A stretch of DNA of 62,190 nt, from positions 1 through 62,190 of IMG/VR virus record IMGVR_UViG_3300031511_000001; one strand, written 5' to 3'. Both the position numbers and the translations under genes were made by a program. Position 1 is the stretch's first letter; each line of letters starts with the position of its first letter. The notes beneath the pieces were generated by a model. The model saw nothing but the letters and a program-made list of their open reading frames with translations, was not told the DNA's origin and made no database searches. This DNA is from a virus (taxonomy: Duplodnaviria; Caudoviricetes). Shown here piece after piece: positions 12,491 through 17,409 of this stretch.

Positions 12491-12790
12491 CTATCTGGAC
12501 TCGCCAACGCGAAATGTGCCGTCGCTATAATTGCCGCGCTGATTGCTGGGTCCATTGGTTCCCCAATTTGGCCCTTGTTCGCCGGTCTCCAAATCATCAA
12601 GCCAAAACAGATTTACCGACCTATAGCCAGGGTGATCCCGTTCCTCATTCACACGCACCCACGCCGAAGGTTGCCACGGTGTATCATCGACTGCGAGTAC
12701 CGTCCCAACTTCGCCTTGGGTGCCTTCTATTCCTTCGCTGTTGATGCGAACTTTGCGGCCAAGCCAGTCTTTCACGCTGTCCAGTGTCAT
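12491..12790 (-). CDS. hypothetical (SH3/KOW-like) array protein
   Basis: ORF with GAGGAG RBS; LGRKVRI...GEVGTVLAV. Confidence 0.6.
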   Translation of the reverse strand: MTLDSVKDWLGRKVRINSEGIEGTQGEVGTVLAVDDTPWQPSAWVRVNEERDHPGYRSVNLFWLDDLETGEQGPNWGTNGPSNQRGNYSDGTFRVGESR

Positions 12791-12802
12791 CGTCAGTGCT
12801 CC

Positions 12803-12994
12803 TCAGTTGGACTGTGTTTCAGCGTTGAGCACCTTGCCCGCGTTCCATGCAGCAACCGCATCCGCCTCTATGTTGAAGTAGCTTGTGACGCGCCAGCAAT
12901 AGCAGCAGGCGACGCGAGATCGACTGCTCAAGTTCGTCTCGATCACAAGCGGACCTTGCTCACTGCATGTGCACGGGTTTGCGCCTTCGACCAT
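12803..12994 (-). CDS. Lar-like restriction alleviation Zn-finger protein
   Basis: NPCTC...VACCYC...DAVAAWN pattern of the Lar family. Confidence 0.6.
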   Translation of the reverse strand: MVEGANPCTCSEQGPLVIETNLSSRSRVACCYCWRVTSYFNIEADAVAAWNAGKVLNAETQSN

Positions 12995-13006
12995 GTCGGT
13001 CGCCTC

Positions 13007-13237
13007 CTAATCTGGATCGCTCGAATTATACCGAGCGACTTCCTCAATCTCGTCATTGATGCTCTGCACGAGTTCCAAAGCGGTGGCCGGGTAGTTCTGC
13101 ACCGAATTCGGCTCGCGCTCGCTTTCGACGCAATAGCCTTCCGGCGTCAAAAGCGTGTGGTATGTGCCGCAGATTCGTCCGTGCCATGACGAACCCTTGA
13201 CCTTGCGAACACGGTCGCCATCTTCGAATTTTGACAT
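13007..13237 (-). CDS. dfrB: DfrB-family (R67-type) dihydrofolate reductase homologue
   Basis: [52 protein letters not shown] aligns gap-free to R67 [52 protein letters not shown]. Confidence 0.85.
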
Positions 13238-13246
13238 CTCGTGCTC

Positions 13247-13489
13247 CTATTTCGGAATGGGCTTGCGCGTGATGGTGAATTCGAATTGCTCGTCACCACC
13301 ACCAAACGAAACTACAGTGGACGCGCCGGGCTCCGGCATCTTGTGGTCAAAAGCAAATGACGCAAGCGCCTGCCAAAACTCGTTAGTTGCGTCGCGGGTT
13401 TCGAGCGCCAAAGTCGGGTCTTTCCCGAAGCGTGCCAGCACAATTCTGTTGCTGAATGGCGCATGCCGAATGCCTACTTTCTCAAGCAT
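13247..13489 (-). CDS. hypothetical array protein
   Basis: 80-aa ORF with RBS and junction motif. Confidence 0.6.
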   Translation of the reverse strand: MLEKVGIRHAPFSNRIVLARFGKDPTLALETRDATNEFWQALASFAFDHKMPEPGASTVVSFGGGDEQFEFTITRKPIPK

Positions 13490-13498
13490 TTCTGTCTC

Positions 13499-13654
13499 CT
13501 ACTCGGAATTACCAAATCGTTTGAAATAGCCGAGCGCCAACAGCGTTAGGCCAGCCCCTGCGGACAGGATATAGTAGTCCGGCGCTGCTCCGCCGATTCC
13601 AATCAAAACTCCCGCCAGCCACCCGAGATACACTGCCGCTCCGTTTGCACTCAT
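13499..13654 (-). CDS. small membrane protein (51 aa, below the ORF track cutoff)
   Basis: MSANGAAVYLGWLAGVLIGIGGAAPDYYILSAGAGLTLLALGYFKRFGNSE; GGAGG RBS; two hydrophobic segments. Confidence 0.6.
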   Translation of the reverse strand: MSANGAAVYLGWLAGVLIGIGGAAPDYYILSAGAGLTLLALGYFKRFGNSE

Positions 13655-13664
13655 CACCCGCCTC

Positions 13665-14087
13665 CTACTTGGAATTGCGTTTCTTCGCCCGCATCCGGGC
13701 CATGTTCCTGGCGCGCTTGGCGCGCAGAGCTTCGGCCACGATAGCCCTACGCCCGGCTTCGTCTGCCGGCTCGCGTGACAGGCCGACCAAAATGCCGACG
13801 CCCTTGGCGGTCAACCGATCGACGAAGTTCTGAGCCATCGTATTGGTCAGACCGGCGCAGGTTCCGTCAGCAATGGCCACCAGGTCGCCCTCGACGGTCG
13901 CCTTGCTCAGCAGATATTCCCATTCCTCACAAAGCAGCTCCGGGCGCGTGGTCCAATCCTTGATGCGCTGGATCACCACCGGCCCGGTCTTGTCCTTGTG
14001 ATCGAGCCCGTGAAACTCCATGATGGCGCGCTGATCCTTCTCGGAAGGCCGGCGCGGCGCGATGAGAATGAAGCCCCAAACTGTCAT
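13665..14087 (-). CDS. serine resolvase-fold protein, catalytic residues lost, no HTH
   Basis: G5, S15, Q19, G27 and EGD-x10-G-x16-GV are in register with gamma-delta resolvase; YARVS is FILIA and DRLGR is TCAGL. Confidence 0.65.
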   Translation of the reverse strand: MTVWGFILIAPRRPSEKDQRAIMEFHGLDHKDKTGPVVIQRIKDWTTRPELLCEEWEYLLSKATVEGDLVAIADGTCAGLTNTMAQNFVDRLTAKGVGILVGLSREPADEAGRRAIVAEALRAKRARNMARMRAKKRNSK

Positions 14088-14102
14088 TTGATATACCTTG
14101 GC

Positions 14103-15415: not shown

Positions 15416-15439
15416 TTCCGTAAAACCCCGGAGGCCGCT

Positions 15440-15796
15440 ATGAGCGCCATTGAAGATATCGCCGCCGAACGTAACCGCCAGATCGAGGCGGAAGGCTGGA
15501 CACCGGAGCATGACGACGCTCATCAGTTCGGCGAACTTGCGCGGGCAGGCGCACAGTACGCCATTTTAGCCGCTTGGCCCGATCAAGCCGAACGATCGGT
15601 CATGAGCGGCGACAACGGGCACGCAGTTCCGTTCGATGCAACCCATCTGCACGGGCGCCGCGAGACCATGATTTGGCCTTGGGATGCGGAATGGCTCAAG
15701 CCAACAACCCCGCGCCGAGACCTGGTCAAAGCTGGCGCTCTGATCGTCGCCGAGATTGAACGCATCGACCGCGCCGCTGCGCGCGAGTCCGAATAA
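15440..15796 (+). CDS. conserved phage protein, MazG-like all-alpha fold
   Basis: IAAERNRQIEAEGWTPEHDD...WPW...RRDLVKAGALIVAEIERIDR. Confidence 0.7.
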   Translation: MSAIEDIAAERNRQIEAEGWTPEHDDAHQFGELARAGAQYAILAAWPDQAERSVMSGDNGHAVPFDATHLHGRRETMIWPWDAEWLKPTTPRRDLVKAGALIVAEIERIDRAAARESE

Positions 15797-15814
15797 GGCC
15801 GACCGGAGCCGAAG

Positions 15815-16267
15815 ATGCTCAAAACACCAGACCCAGATAAAATTCCATGCCTCTTTTGCGGGCGTCGGATGAGCAGCCGGTGCGCCGATGAAAGAACGGC
15901 GCAAGAGGTTTGCGGGGTGCGGCCGCAGCCGAAGACTAAAGACGACTTCGTTACGCGTTTTGTGAAGCGCATGGTTGAGCGTGGTGGGAAGCAATTCGAC
16001 GATGGCAGTTCAATCGAGGAATATGCGCAAGAGACGGCGCCGCTCTATTGGGCAGAGCCTGACCAGCGCGAAGAAGGCCCAGAGGCATGCGCTGATGAGG
16101 CACCGATGCTTTGTCGTGAACAGTGCAAGACATGCTGCGGCAATGGTGAAGTAGTCGTGGATTGGGAACGCTATCTGCACGCGTTCCCTGGAGACGTTGG
16201 AGATGAGGCCGTTGCGGAATGTCCAGACTGTGGCGGCTTGGGCTACGTCGAGATTGAATCCACCTAA
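15815..16267 (+). CDS. Zn-finger protein (DnaJ-type CxxCxGxG repeats)
   Basis: CKTCCGNG...CPDCGGLG and an N-terminal CLFC. Confidence 0.55.
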   Translation: MLKTPDPDKIPCLFCGRRMSSRCADERTAQEVCGVRPQPKTKDDFVTRFVKRMVERGGKQFDDGSSIEEYAQETAPLYWAEPDQREEGPEACADEAPMLCREQCKTCCGNGEVVVDWERYLHAFPGDVGDEAVAECPDCGGLGYVEIEST

Positions 16268-16281
16268 CCCCGGAGGCGTTA

Positions 16282-16593
16282 ATGCTCGGCCAATATCTCT
16301 ATGTCCCGCTCGACAAAGCCCAGACGGTGAAAGAAGGCCACGTTTACGTCAATCGCTGGTGGTCAGTTCATCCTGATAAGGGCGTCGTCTTCTATACGAG
16401 GTTCCTCCGCCTCAGAATTGAGGGGGAAGATAACGAACCTTCGCCCCAATGCAATCAGGACGAATATACCGCAAGACACCTGAACGAGAGACTTCGACCC
16501 GACTGTGGGGTTATTTTCATCCCGGCCGTCTATGCGGCGCATGCGTGGGATGAGCTTGTCCATCTTGTCGAGCTTAAAAAAGTCAATTCCTAG
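16282..16593 (+). CDS. hypothetical array protein
   Basis: GGAGG RBS; junction motif. Confidence 0.6.
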   Translation: MLGQYLYVPLDKAQTVKEGHVYVNRWWSVHPDKGVVFYTRFLRLRIEGEDNEPSPQCNQDEYTARHLNERLRPDCGVIFIPAVYAAHAWDELVHLVELKKVNS

Positions 16594-16611
16594 AAACCCC
16601 TGGAGGTGAAC

Positions 16612-16833
16612 ATGGCAGCATACGTAAAACAGGCTGACCAGGTCGTTTTGATCCTGTCGAAGGCCGAAGCGACCGCGCTCAATGACCGGCTGATGCGCAC
16701 TCAGGAGGAAGCTGAAATTTCATTCGGCCTCGAACCGTCGAACAACTCAACTGCGGCCGCTTTGGATAGAGCACGCCGTGCGCTCGACACTGCATGCAAC
16801 CCAAGCTCGCGCTCGGGCGCGGCCATCCAGTAA
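16612..16833 (+). CDS. hypothetical array protein
   Basis: GGAGG RBS; junction motif. Confidence 0.6.
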   Translation: MAAYVKQADQVVLILSKAEATALNDRLMRTQEEAEISFGLEPSNNSTAAALDRARRALDTACNPSSRSGAAIQ

Positions 16834-16851
16834 AGGCCGGAGGACAGACCT

Positions 16852-17391
16852 TTGACGGCCGATGACATCATTGAAGGCTTGATCGGCGTCTCCCAGGACA
16901 AGATCTGGGTGAAGGAATTGCCGCTGTTTGCGGGCGGCAGACGTATTGATTTTTGGACGCTTGAGCCTTCGTTTTCGAAGGGGTATCGAGCCACCTCCTA
17001 TGAGGTGAAAATCAGCCGAGGCGATTTCAAACGCGACAGTGATGAGAAGCAAGCCGGCGCGCTGTCCTATAGCGATCGGTTTTTCTATGTCACCACGCCG
17101 GGCTTGCTGAAACGCGACGAAGTGCCTGACTGGTCTGGGCTCATGGAATGGGACGGCAAGAATTTTTCGGTTCGCAGGCGCGCCCCGAAACGGAAAAAGC
17201 ACGAGCCTAATTGGGAGTTTGTCGTTTCCGCTCTGCGGGGCTCCGCCCAATTTGGGCGCGATGCTGGTCTGACACTTGCCGAAAATGCCTATCTCAAACA
17301 CCGGCTGGCAATGATCGAACGGGCGCAGAAGGCCAAGCAAGAACGAGATATGGACAGGTGGTTGCGCCAGCACGCGCGCGCCGCCGAATGA
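16852..17391 (+). CDS. MmcB-like PD-(D/E)XK nuclease
   Basis: RRIDFW...YEVKISRGDFKRD...YSDRFFYVT...EVPDWSGLME. Confidence 0.7.
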   Translation: MTADDIIEGLIGVSQDKIWVKELPLFAGGRRIDFWTLEPSFSKGYRATSYEVKISRGDFKRDSDEKQAGALSYSDRFFYVTTPGLLKRDEVPDWSGLMEWDGKNFSVRRRAPKRKKHEPNWEFVVSALRGSAQFGRDAGLTLAENAYLKHRLAMIERAQKAKQERDMDRWLRQHARAAE

Positions 17392-17409
17392 TTTTCCGAG
17401 AAACTCCGA

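Follow-up and report, generated by a model that had tools for sequence, protein, structure and literature searches.

The 62,190-nt stretch of phage DNA analyzed here (the window) contains, inside its head-gene module, an accessory island of ~4.9 kb with a GC content of 55-59%, compared to 62-64% in the flanks (Table 1). Its 16 small genes form two outward-facing rows around a gene for a resolvase-like protein (from here on, the core gene). Genes were identified using a simple caller of our own, and some start codons are uncertain. The cargo includes a member of the R67-type DHFR family (13007-13237), which is known from integron cassettes, and an MmcB-like gene (16852-17391). A perfect palindrome of 16 bp (14118-14133) in the divergent region shares bases with two -10-like TATATC boxes and is likely an operator; a scan for consensus promoters gave no site in this region, and no promoter- or terminator-like site was found at any junction of the two arrays.

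Table 1. Coordinates of the island, its genes, its linkers and its flanks in the window
Feature	Coordinates	Strand	Remarks
Whole accessory island	12491..17407	both	16 small genes, two divergent arrays
Left flank, conserved 146-aa head-module gene	12040..12480	-	now translated from the last island linker
Minus-arm cargo, 5 genes	13499-13654, 13247-13489, 13007-13237, 12803-12994, 12491-12790	-	span 12491..13654
Core gene, 140 aa, "pseudo-resolvase"	13665..14087	-	first minus-arm gene, beside divergent promoter
Divergent promoter region (putative)	14088..14160	.	read from sequence
Plus-arm cargo, genes 1-5 of 10	14161-14379, 14392-14643, 14660-14860, 14877-15116, 15140-15415	+	span of all ten, 14161..17391
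Plus-arm cargo, genes 6-10 of 10	15440-15796, 15815-16267, 16282-16593, 16612-16833, 16852-17391	+	as above
Right flank, conserved 171-aa head gene and portal gene	17410..19770	-	17410-17925 and 17926-19770
Own-arm linker	13655..13673	-	TCC-N5-GGAGG; stop TAG overlaps SD
Own-arm linker	13490..13507	-	motif and matrix
Own-arm linker	13238..13256	-	motif and matrix
Own-arm linker	12995..13016	-	motif and matrix
Own-arm linker	12791..12811	-	motif and matrix; stop is TGA
Own-arm linker, joint of island to 146-aa head gene	12481..12499	-	left homology breakpoint with relative (12492)
Plus-arm linker, weak copy	14371..14391	+	motif and matrix
Plus-arm linker	14638..14659	+	exact TTC-N4-AAACC with preceding T included
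Plus-arm linker	14852..14876	+	motif and matrix
Plus-arm linker	15118..15139	+	TCC after stop codon
Plus-arm linker	15417..15439	+	exact TTC-N4-AAACC; homology with relative begins at 15416
Plus-arm linker	15788..15814	+	identity with relative stops at ~15800 (by eye), right after TAAGGCC
Plus-arm linker	16259..16281	+	motif and matrix
Plus-arm linker	16588..16611	+	exact TTC-N4-AAACC
Plus-arm linker	16826..16851	+	weakest matrix score
Terminal tail, right island boundary	17395..17407	+	adjoins stop codon of convergent 171-aa head gene

Each of the 16 island genes has a TCC-containing tail at its end, and the 16 TCC positions listed in a first-pass annotation of the window were all present. 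The six minus-strand junctions have the form TCC-N5/6-GGAG, in which the stop codon overlaps the Shine-Dalgarno (SD) sequence. On the plus strand, nine of the ten gene ends, including the terminal one at 17395, match TCC-N2/3-WAA-(CCCC/GGCC/CTCC), and eight of these nine are followed by GGAG, GAGG or GGA 0-4 nt after the tail, so that the gap from the C-rich block to the SD is variable; the junction at 14371 is a weak copy of the plus-arm form (TCCAAATGACTTGAGG). As described previously, a tail persists at 17395-17407, where there is no SD and no co-oriented gene follows. TCC is invariant in the 16 copies while the adjoining positions vary. Nearly all tails have C or T as their third base. TCC lies in frame two codons before the stop codon in eight genes, is the last codon in two, is out of frame in three and follows the stop codon in three. 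It is, thus, not bound to one reading frame, as had been claimed, though it is preferentially placed as an in-frame Ser codon.

Using a leave-one-out weight matrix of the 12 nt around TCC from which the SD was left out, we found 15 of the 16 tails within the top 75 of 124,358 genome positions, while the sixteenth (16826) ranked 522; the proposed enrichment of the motif at island gene ends is borne out by this check. TCC was present 17-28 nt upstream of the start codon at 15 of 15 island junction starts versus 19 of 79 other genes in the genome (Fisher p = 2e-8, based on our own gene calls). The pattern TCC-N5/6-GGAG occurs 21 times in the genome (both strands), and all six occurrences within the island are at junctions. 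The eight TAGGAG junctions outside the island that had been reported to lack TCC do so, but the end of the gene at 44029-44181, which had been missed, carries it. In three host genomes, TCY was found at the tail offset in 53 of 1699 TAGGAG sites (3.1%, chance level), several of which fall inside islands themselves. Because host TAGGAG sites carry TCY at chance level, the tail is not a general host signal. The suggestion that TCC pairs with GGA of the next SD in a translational-coupling hairpin describes a possible but weak structure: stems of 3-4 bp are predicted at 9 of 15 junctions, folding energies are no better than those of shuffles (within about 1.3 sd of mononucleotide shuffles), and tails also persist where no SD follows.

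To place the island in context, we used 52 portal-related loci, 28 of which hold both flanking genes. In all 28, the flanking genes are 6-884 nt apart (distance between tblastn hits) with no such island, and most of the 25 flank junctions listed are abutting or overlapping. The 16 island proteins had no matches in the 52 loci (tblastn, E 1e-5). The island is an insertion between head-module genes. In the near-identical phage L141 (also seen in run X2), in which the flanks are 97.9% and 87.6-95% identical to those of the window, a different 2.2-kb island with the same tails is present at the same place. It has seven genes, of which a single one has a homologue in the window island (62% aa identity), in line with the proposal of a platform with variable cargo. 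In a 61.5-kb contig of run X2, 12492 is joined to 15416 with 1366 other letters between, and further joints connect 15518 to 15707 and 15800 to 17406, the latter with 497 other letters between; X2 and L141 may represent the same variant or sample.

Alignment of relatives, which the first-pass annotation had put forward as a check, places the breakpoints of gene replacement in the motif linkers (window versus L141/X2): all four homology breakpoints between the window and L141 lie inside linkers, between the tail and the next SD, and the common sequence also stops there at the junctions inspected by eye. For the linker at 15788..15814, the X2 joint is at 15800, and the blastn segment against L141 continues to 15832. 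We note that the four breakpoints all come from one phage pair and that any mosaic region of a phage would be expected to have its breakpoints at gene boundaries. When the window-trained matrix was applied to L141, the five best scores among 40,854 positions were all in its island, and the top scores include junctions of non-homologous genes. One L141 linker has a 10-nt tandem duplication, at one junction TCC is lost and the SD kept, and the array ends in a tail with no SD after it. The variable spacing from C-rich block to SD and the 10-nt duplication are signs of imprecise rather than precise joining. Excised or rearranged island forms and circles were not seen among the assembled contigs.

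The core-gene slot of L141 is occupied by a different protein, a 214-aa serine recombinase with the motifs GYARVST..Q and LDRLGR, whose closest solved relative is the Gin invertase (E 3.7e-36), followed by gamma-delta resolvase (6e-26); a tblastn search with this enzyme gave no match in the window, which has no complete recombinase. The 140-aa protein of the window has a resolvase fold according to its AF2 model (pLDDT 92.5, from a 26-sequence alignment), in agreement with the suggestion that a resolvase-fold gene lies beside the divergent promoter. In a Foldseek search of the PDB, the best 35 ranked matches were all serine recombinases (top match 1zr2_A, E 5.7e-7); the family profile matched Tn3 resolvase at E 0.014, and Pfam Resolvase was matched by 5 of 26 relatives. 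In the alignment and the AF2 model, the catalytic Ser and Arg residues of serine recombinases and a helix-turn-helix domain were not found; the family as a whole has no conserved Ser nucleophile, no Arg residues of the LDRLGR motif and no helix-turn-helix domain. The window protein looks catalytically dead. It ends in a long basic helix. Pfam GIY-YIG was matched by 5 of 26 family members (best E 7.3e-5), and the family profile matched the UvrC GIY-YIG domain at E 0.0067; in some members, a C-terminal extension weakly resembles GIY-YIG.

The 140-aa protein has relatives in five viral and five bacterial-genome loci, of which one is a duplicate, leaving nine loci, all from phages or prophages of marine Alphaproteobacteria. 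The architecture, with a resolvase-fold gene, a divergent promoter and two arrays that each have the linker type of their arm in the window, recurs around unrelated cargo in these nine loci. Apart from the core gene, the window has no gene in common with the other loci, and the core proteins of tail-bearing islands are just 26-45% identical. With the window-trained matrix, a tail score of at least 8 was obtained for 31 of 56 arm gene ends versus 5 of 105 other gene ends (p = 5e-13). Similarly, 25 of 26 matches of the TCY-N3/4-TAGGAG type in 12 loci are on the core-gene strand downstream of its start (these 25 include six from the window as well as those from L141 and the duplicate pair L230/L235), on a background of 74 matches in 2.0 Mb. 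Homology also ends at the tail of the core gene between L231 and L232 and between L229 and L230. Array ends in L226 and L227 have tails with no following SD. In L141 and L226-L229, the first gene of the other arm has a linker in its 5'UTR (with TCT in L228), and in L141 and L227-L230, the core gene contains a tail-like motif within its first codons. Palindromes are present in the promoter regions of the window and other loci.

The island is apparently a member of a phage-island family not described before, in which small unrelated genes share a short tail and are exchanged between related phages there. The motif, the insertion, the variant cargo with joints between tail and SD, and the core gene with both linker types around unrelated cargo in other loci are direct observations; the molecular action of the TCY element, the dependence of recombination on homology and the operator role of the palindrome are inferred. 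The reading that we favor, tentatively and at somewhat less than an even chance, is a conserved platform for gene-plus-tail cassettes in which linkers serve as both expression signals and recombination joints. The conserved core would be the resolvase-fold gene beside a divergent promoter/operator, from which two operons run outward, each gene being a unit of SD, ORF, stop codon and tail. The tail, R-T-C-Y-R-A-A-W-A-R, usually provides the stop codon and the Ser codon two codons upstream; it leads straight into GGAG in the core-gene arm and into a C-rich four-mer (CCCC/GGCC/CTCC) before GGAGG in the other arm. With its tail and strong SD, the linker would ensure in-register expression within the operon for any gene inserted between two copies. 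Since all islands have these ~20 nt at every gene boundary, linkers of co-resident phages could also recombine with one another and thereby swap gene-plus-tail blocks. In the window phage, which encodes a Sak4-like annealing protein and an exonuclease and whose resolvase-fold protein appears inactive, such swapping would be driven by homology or microhomology and need no integrase. Several observations count against this reading. Tails at array ends with no SD (17395, L141, L226 and L227) would not be needed by an expression signal, the L141 junction with no TCC keeps its SD, and the RNA hairpin has only 3-4 bp. Moreover, the constant resolvase-fold neighbor hints at a reaction at the DNA level, as do the GIY-YIG-like extensions, the Gin-like recombinase of L141 and the likeness of the plus-arm tail to invertase half-sites.

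The main rival, which we consider unlikely although a serious contender, is that serine recombinases gave rise to a true cassette system, site-specific or nuclease-targeted, with the tails as DNA sites at cassette 3' ends. A resolvase-family enzyme, e.g., the complete Gin-like recombinase filling the core-gene slot in L141 or nuclease-fused forms elsewhere, would cut or recombine at the boundary between tail and SD. This would excise or insert cassettes or convert them between islands, with the two linker classes preventing arm-to-arm recombination. The 140-aa protein would then count as a degenerate or accessory form; its family lacks the catalytic residues and DNA-binding domain, and the window has no complete enzyme. 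The GIY-YIG matches fit such a system, and SD-less terminal tails together with the 5'UTR linker of the other arm (L141, L226-L229) are consistent with one primary site in addition to 3'-end sites. The half-site TTC-N4-AAACC is common to Din-family sites (gix, TTCCTGTAAACC, in Table 3 of PMC3241671). It is exact in three plus-arm tails (14637, 15416 and 16587) and matched at 6-7 of 8 positions in others; the genome contains 6 exact matches versus 1.64 expected. When the tails are aligned on the half-site, the 12-mer is followed by CC in 8 of 10 window tails and 4 of 4 L141 tails, and this is the point where homology with L141 stops. However, the dyad partner was not found (0 matches to the full 26-bp consensus at ≤3 mismatches), minus-arm linkers are unlike the AAACC part, variable joint spacing and the 10-nt duplication are not expected from a precise 2-bp exchange, the contigs contained no circles or rearranged joints, and the half-site likeness was noticed only after the recombinase had been seen and is, therefore, post hoc.

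Rather improbable, in our view, is that the tails are binding sites of an island-encoded regulator and that cassette exchange is a by-product of their repetition. Such sites could act on DNA as orientation-specific silencers, like the stoperators of mycobacteriophage L5 (a parallel drawn in part from one sentence of PMC3203893), or on mRNA as translational operators with the SD as a part. They are short and asymmetric, run with transcription and are confined to islands rather than being shared by ordinary TAGGAG junctions of the host. One arm has a copy in the 5'UTR of its first gene (L141, L226-L229), the core gene has a tail-like motif in its first codons (L141, L227-L230), and a conserved protein ending in a long basic helix always accompanies the sites. 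C or T at the third tail base would keep the pair with G in RNA. Yet one site per gene is far denser than silencing needs, the promoter-region palindromes are a more natural target of a dimeric core protein, and the tails are kept in L141 despite its different core protein.

Under ordinary phage mosaicism, linkers would be alike only by descent from one old operon and by selection on stop codon and SD, TCC would be functionless, and breakpoints would lie at gene boundaries since other recombinants die. This reading draws on breakpoints from just one phage pair and on stop-overlapping TAGGAG junctions, common in the window genome and, according to PMC2784483, in prokaryotes generally. It is already disfavored and highly improbable given a TCC that is invariant in 16/16 copies while its neighbors vary, the same tail in islands with divergent core proteins and unrelated cargo, and host TAGGAG junctions that do not carry it.

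The first-pass annotation had described the island as an integron-like capture platform. The platform and its variable cargo are real, but it is not an integron because it has neither a tyrosine integrase nor an attC-like site: attC is a folded site of 57-141 bp, whereas the sites of the island, fused to the SD, have a length of 10-13 nt, and the island, unlike integrons, has no IntI tyrosine recombinase and consists of two divergent arrays. Like integrons, including those reported from phages (PMC9892861), it has a platform gene by a promoter, variable cargo and arrays of promoterless single-gene cassettes, each of which ends in a conserved 3' element. With the Din-family invertases (Hin/Gin/Cin/Pin/Min), it shares the plus-arm match to the half-site (excerpts of PMC3241671; gix core, PMC5175349), the Gin-like recombinase in L141 and, as in Min, several sites per locus; it differs in that a dyad-symmetric site of 26 bp is lacking, the sites within each arm are directly repeated, the window protein is, as judged from its residues, no functional invertase, and no inversion is known. 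Free-standing GIY-YIG homing endonucleases of T-even phages such as SegB also lie exactly between conserved, tightly coupled genes and carry adjoining accessory genes along (PMC2330249 and PMC13096335), and some core-gene relatives have a weakly GIY-YIG-like C-terminal extension; unlike these single-gene elements, the 16-gene island has a core protein with no nuclease domain and no known cleavage site.

The SAS/ESAS of Cluster K mycobacteriophages are, in the account given in a section of PMC3203893, short (13-bp) asymmetric repeats that form part of the ribosome-binding region and lie a few bases before the start codon; they often hold the stop codon of the upstream gene (TAGGAG core), are found at non-structural genes only, in one orientation and with unrelated gene families, are absent from the host genome and have no known function. 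Their sequence, GGGATAGGAGCCC, differs from that of island tails, which are conserved upstream of the SD and have terminal copies with no SD; the island also has two arm-specific forms, a conserved resolvase-fold neighbor gene and sites at which cargo exchange is directly evident, and its hosts are Alphaproteobacteria rather than mycobacteria. The PeSL cassettes of T4-type phages, as presented in parts of PMC2839356, are ~100 bp with an early promoter and a terminator stem-loop, whereas island linkers are ~20 nt and lie inside polycistronic operons, and mini-circles were demonstrated for PeSLs while none were seen in our contigs. As in the island, they are repeated regulatory motifs that separate small orphan genes of hyperplastic regions, the stretches that differ between two close phages begin and stop at the motifs, and recombination between motif copies has been proposed to result in in-register excision or insertion (PMC2839356).

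The island, made up of 16 small genes in two divergent arms, carries a short TCC-containing element, here called the tail, at the end of all 16 of its genes. Minus-arm junctions have the form (T)TCC-N5/6-GGAG, in which TAG or TGA overlaps the next gene's Shine-Dalgarno (SD) sequence, and plus-arm junctions read TCC-N2/3-WAA-(CCCC/GGCC/CTCC)-N0-4-GGAGG/GAGG, the junction at 14371 being a weak copy; a tail plus the next SD is referred to as a linker. Aligned on TCC, the tails share the core R-T/G-TCC-R-A-R-W-A-R. The conserved element is 10-13 nt long and often supplies the stop codon. 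TCC is located 17-28 nt upstream of the start codon at 15/15 island junctions vs 19/79 other genes (p = 2e-8), and 15 of the 16 tails ranked within the top 75 of 124,358 positions when scored with a leave-one-out 12-nt matrix from which the SD was excluded. The TCC motif that the first-pass annotation had reported at 16/16 gene ends withstood all tests against chance, including scoring with a matrix, as it had suggested. All eight TAGGAG junctions outside the island that it had described as lacking TCC do so, while one further outside junction, at the end of the gene at 44029-44181, has TCC. This minus-strand gene end (junction near 44037), which is beside the endolysin gene, has a high-scoring tail (ATTCCGGATAGGA), unlike any other gene end outside the island.

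TCC is the in-frame codon two upstream of the stop codon in eight genes, the last codon in two, out of frame in three, and past the stop codon in three. Because the placement of TCC varies in frame and extends past the stop codon, the signal resides in the nucleic acid, as had been proposed; a C-terminal signal at the protein level was rejected based on the 6/16 genes in which TCC is out of frame or after the stop codon. The last tail copy (17395-17407) indeed persists with no co-oriented gene after it, and it also lacks an SD.

The record is a complete 62,190-bp phage genome with a GC content of 60%. A podovirus-like phage is indicated by its matches to PHROG families, which comprise the portal and major head protein, T7-type tail tube proteins, internal virion proteins, endolysin, a DNA methyltransferase, an exonuclease, and a Sak4-like annealing protein. 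Gene calling was done with a simple codon-usage caller trained on long ORFs and gave 96 genes; the start codons of several small genes are uncertain (13654/13657, 14657/14660, 15815/15917, and 16606/16612). The island has six genes on the minus strand and 10 on the plus strand, separated by intergenic distances of 9-25 nt, and both arms diverge from a 73-nt region that, as read from the sequence, contains a perfect 16-bp palindrome and −10-like boxes. In a scan of 12000-18000, none of the junctions had a promoter-like site; the two promoter-like sites were both within genes and equaled the number in shuffles, and the seven terminator-like sites, a count also as in shuffles, included none at junctions. 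Rfam gave no matches at E up to 1 within 12000-18000. One cargo gene encodes a 76-aa R67-type dihydrofolate reductase family protein (Pfam DHFR_2, E 2.9e-20), and a similar gene in a Rhizobium phage record is annotated as dihydrofolate reductase. Elsewhere in the genome, the large terminase appears as two adjacent ORFs with a 4-nt overlap (together 20543-22125), which could represent a split gene, a frameshift, or a gene-caller artifact.

Coordinates of the island and of selected genes in the phage genome
Feature	Coordinates	Strand	Basis
Major head protein	9888-10940		PHROG
Island	12491-17407	both	
R67-type dihydrofolate reductase cargo gene	13007-13237	minus	Pfam
Core gene (140 aa)	13665-14087	minus	
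Divergence region of both arms	14088-14160		
Perfect palindrome (16 bp)	14118-14133		read from sequence
118-aa gene shared with the L141 variant	15440-15796		
Portal	17926-19770		PHROG
Large terminase, C-terminal part	20543-21364	minus	
Large terminase, N-terminal part	21361-22125	minus	

Scanning viral contigs with the portal protein identified 52 related loci, most of which had a best-segment portal identity of 52-71% (30-37% in five distant loci). In none of these 52 loci did we find a match to any of the 16 island proteins, the motif excess, or the island itself. In all 28 loci that hold both of the conserved head-module genes flanking the island in the window (the 171-aa gene on the right and the 146-aa gene on the left), the tblastn matches of the two genes are 6-884 nt apart, and in the 25 junctions listed, the stop and start codons mostly overlap or abut. 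GC content is 55-59% in the island vs 62-64% in the flanks. Judged from these sequence comparisons, the island is an insertion between two head genes. The linker was not found in the other variable inserts of the head module of the relatives (portal/171-aa and 146-aa/protease). Six of the relatives (L011, L012, L018, L022, L025, and L037) have a 3.5-5-kb opposite-strand insert with conserved genes of about 515, 380, and 70 aa between the portal and 171-aa genes, a second variable spot of the head module; in the window, these two genes are directly adjacent.

Distant blastn of 12000-18000 against a phage GenBank collection revealed no related island, its only matches being ~100 nt long and inside two cargo genes, and a scan of viral contigs with the 140-aa protein of the core gene alone gave no match. 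Scans of viral contigs with the MmcB-like protein of the island and with the recombinase of the variant described below gave seven loci and one distant locus (L142), respectively, all without linkers. The exact plus-arm linker pattern occurred in 80 stretches of viral contigs, all as single matches and several of them upstream of endolysin genes; homologues of the 118-aa gene in 80 other viral loci had no linker by eye. An unrelated 64-kb viral record with a GC content of 68% (G001, the record of L094) has two consecutive plus-arm-type linkers (6478-6734, minus strand), of which one is identical to that at 16259 over 13 nt, and has no core-gene relative in its first 14 kb.

The region is present in two public sequencing runs, X1 (probably the source) and X2, which were compared as contigs. 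A 61.5-kb contig of a close relative from X2 shows piecewise replacement of the island, the joints being 12492>15416, 15518>15707, and 15800>17406. L141, a locus of a near-identical phage with a different island at the same site, is probably the same variant, and we counted the two as one observation because they may be one variant or even one sample. Identity to the window is 97.9% in the left flank of L141 and 87.6-95% in the right flank. The L141 island is 2.2 kb long, with one minus-arm gene and six plus-arm genes. The only window-related cargo gene is a homologue of the 118-aa gene (62% at the amino acid level). By eye, the stretches common to the window and L141 all stop between a tail and the SD after it: at the left joint (...TCC-N4|AGGAG, ahead of the 146-aa gene); 5' of the shared 118-aa gene, where identity is clear from the SD and the L141 tail is degenerate; 3' of this gene, directly after TAAGGCC; and at the right joint, past the terminal tail. 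Different upstream genes carry different tails, each with TCC at the same place. Replaceable gene content with breakpoints at the motif, for which the first-pass annotation had proposed to test related phages, is seen in L141/X2, with 4/4 breakpoints in linkers.

L141 has tails at five of its seven gene ends as well as in the 5'UTR of the first plus-arm gene; one junction has lost TCC, one is a start/stop overlap, and one has a 10-nt tandem duplication. With the window-trained matrix, the five best scores among 40,854 positions were all inside the L141 island. No alternative joints were found among the contigs of X1, in which rare circles or inversions would be invisible. Between the 171-aa and portal genes, where the window has no spacer, L141 also contains 195 additional nt with a 65-aa ORF (13176-13370 in window orientation).

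The core gene, which is the first gene of the minus arm, encodes a 140-aa protein with no Pfam or PHROG match and no close relative. A word-index search for relatives returned only the protein itself, and an exhaustive HMMER search returned 28 distant relatives. While a single-sequence structure model was too poor for use (pLDDT 50), an AlphaFold model built with 25 of the relatives had a pLDDT of 92.5 and displays the resolvase catalytic-domain fold with a long E helix. The first 35 ranked structural matches of this model were all serine recombinases, with a TM-score of 0.71-0.75 for gamma-delta resolvase. Moreover, Pfam Resolvase matched 5 of 26 family members, and the family profile matched Tn3 resolvase with an E of 0.014. 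The model, the structural matches, and the family profile all confirm the earlier suggestion of a resolvase-fold gene. In an alignment of 26 members, the family reads APGRP at the position of the recombinase nucleophile Ser and CLG at DRLGR and has no conserved Ser, the motifs having been matched by eye on the basis of the sequence and the predicted secondary structure. The 140-aa protein terminates after the long basic E helix and lacks the helix-turn-helix DNA-binding domain; some family members extend into a weakly GIY-YIG-like or HNH domain. Based on these sequence features, the window protein looks inactive as a recombinase. The core slot of L141 is occupied by a different protein, a complete serine recombinase with Gin invertase as the closest solved relative. 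No counterpart of this recombinase was found in the window, and BLASTP of the 140-aa protein against it gave no significant match (E 3).

Scans with six family members identified five viral loci (L226-L230) and five bacterial-genome loci (L231-L235), of which L235 duplicates L230 and was dropped. The titles of the bacterial records name Alloyangia, Salipiger, Antarcticimicrobium, Hoeflea, and one metagenome-assembled genome labeled Mycobacterium. The core gene is the only gene common to these loci and the window, and cargo is almost entirely unrelated between loci. Genes on the core strand are followed by TCY-N3/4-TAGGAG linkers and genes in the divergent arm by TCY-N3-WAR-SSCC-GGAGG linkers. 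Matches to TCY-N3/4-TAGGAG were on the core strand and 3' of the core start in 25/26 cases in 12 loci, with the 25 including the window (6), L141, and the duplicate pair L230/L235; the background was 74 in 2.0 Mb. In nine loci, the window-trained matrix scored at least 8 at 31/56 arm gene ends vs 5/105 others (p = 5e-13), and many low-scoring arm ends are TCT variants. In the pairs L231/L232 and L229/L230, homology spans the core gene and stops at its tail, while L226 and L230 have one cassette end in common, stopping after a tail. In three host genomes, TCY was present at the tail offset in 53/1699 TAGGAG sites (3.1%, chance level), and several of the 53 are within islands. Therefore, the tail is island-specific and not a general host translation signal. 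The island adjoins a phage integrase in L226 and L229, and L229 has lysis genes on the other side; temperate phages usually have their accessory region in this neighborhood.

We note several additional features of these loci. L228, L229, and L230 have an extra small gene just 5' of the core gene with, by eye, the look of a ribbon-helix-helix repressor. The promoter region of L228-L230 has two copies of a 10-bp palindrome, and L226 and L227 have other palindromes. L232 has a second diverged resolvase-fold gene in the same arm (about 6580-6935, plus strand), which is followed by a TCC-AAA-TAGGAG tail. Finally, a tail-like motif is present in the first codons of the core gene, before a conserved WGY/IGY, in L227-L230 (about 4985-5010) and in L141 (minus strand, 11079-11092 in window orientation); at the start of the L141 core-slot gene, it ranks 4 of 40,854 positions.

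Three roles of the tail fit these data, i.e., an mRNA element, a DNA site for recombination or cleavage, and a binding site for an island regulator. We tentatively favor, with somewhat less than even confidence, that the linkers would serve as conserved expression joints and, as they recur between all genes and in all islands, would double as recombination joints for gene-plus-tail cassettes, with exchange in the window phage driven by homology. This combination was chosen because it needs the least.

The main rival, which we consider rather unlikely, is site-specific or nuclease-targeted recombination at the tails. The plus-arm tail matches the Din-family half-site TTC-N4-AAACC, exactly in 3/10 tails and closely in most others, and the genome has 6 exact matches vs 1.64 expected; however, this likeness was noticed post hoc, the AAACC part is missing in all six minus-arm linkers, and the 26-bp dyad (two inverted half-sites and a 2-bp core) had no matches at up to three mismatches. 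An invariant CC is present at the point where L141 homology ends, and L141 encodes the Gin-like enzyme, but joint length varies and the window's own 140-aa protein has an inactive look. Two exact TTC-N4-AAACC matches on the minus strand (10611-10622 and 11454-11465), both starting with TTCC, fall within genes (those for the major head protein and the protease) and are also present in L141 as conserved sites; one of them is followed by GAGG, like gix, and both may be due to chance. In a broader proposal, which we likewise consider rather unlikely, the island family would be a serine-recombinase-derived counterpart of integrons in phages of marine Alphaproteobacteria: the tails would be minimal recombination/cleavage sites related to invertase half-sites; core proteins (active Gin-like, nuclease-fused, or degenerate) would capture, excise, and convert single-gene cassettes; the two linker classes would separate the arms; and the island could home into new sites, e.g., the junction of two head genes here.

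As an mRNA element, the tail can pair through its UCY with the GGA of the SD that follows, and a pair with G would be retained whether the Y is C or U. On the other hand, the stems are only 3-4 bp, pairing is predicted in 9/15 junctions with folding energies as in shuffles, and array-end tails persist without an SD. A role as a binding site for an island regulator would also fit the sequence, but for a dimeric core protein, the promoter palindromes look like a more natural target. Extended base pairing between the linker and the 3' end of 16S rRNA was dropped since its upstream bases do not seem to match the complement.

It has long been asked how small accessory genes are acquired and shuffled by phages precisely at gene boundaries, and there are two views: conserved linkers guide exchange, or random illegitimate recombination is followed by selection. 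The locus described here is a concrete, testable case for the linker view, offering a ~20-nt linker conserved across unrelated phages, a natural pair of near-identical phages differing by whole gene-plus-tail blocks joined in the linker, and a conserved resolvase-fold family, not named before, as a marker of such islands. Tails that prove to be enzyme sites would define a gene-capture platform of a new kind; tails that are expression signals would instead extend the unexplained start-associated sequences of mycobacteriophages to another phylum and link them to gene exchange. Either way, the resolvase-fold family provides a simple search handle for islands and their cargo, which across the family probably includes host-takeover, defense, or counter-defense genes. 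In the literature searched, no description of the linker or of the resolvase-fold family was found.

In integrons, each cassette ends in an attC site, which is a long imperfect inverted repeat containing conserved core sites. The integron-like platform proposed in the first-pass annotation stands with respect to the cassette-like logic and the resolvase-fold gene but not with respect to the two defining integron components: no integrase (IntI-type tyrosine recombinase) was found when the 16 island proteins and flanking genes were scanned against Pfam and PHROG, and with intergenic distances of 9-25 nt and a conserved element of 10-13 nt, the island has no attC. Also, the platform gene here has a serine-recombinase fold, unlike the tyrosine recombinase of integrons. 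The Din invertase systems share the half-site TTC-N4-AAACC among gix, mix, and hix, as listed in Table 3 of PMC3241671. The plus-arm tails of the window share this half-site, and the enzyme family is shared via L141; however, full 26-bp sites are missing, and a cognate active invertase is present in L141 but not in the window. The start-associated sequences of Cluster K mycobacteriophages are, as described in PMC3203893, 13-bp sequences (GGGATAGGAGCCC) 3-7 bp upstream of start codons. They are like the linker in position and in the TAGGAG core, whereas the flanking conserved bases differ; the island linker works like a start-associated sequence without being a member. A PeSL, as outlined in PMC2839356, is a sigma-70 early promoter plus a terminator stem-loop of about 100 bp, and this promoter-plus-terminator structure is missing at the island junctions. 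The linker has the defining sequence or structure of neither start-associated sequences nor PeSL. Nevertheless, like PeSL shuffling in T4-type phages as described there, replacements between close phages end in the island motif (4/4 in L141/X2, as well as L231/L232, L229/L230, and L226/L230).
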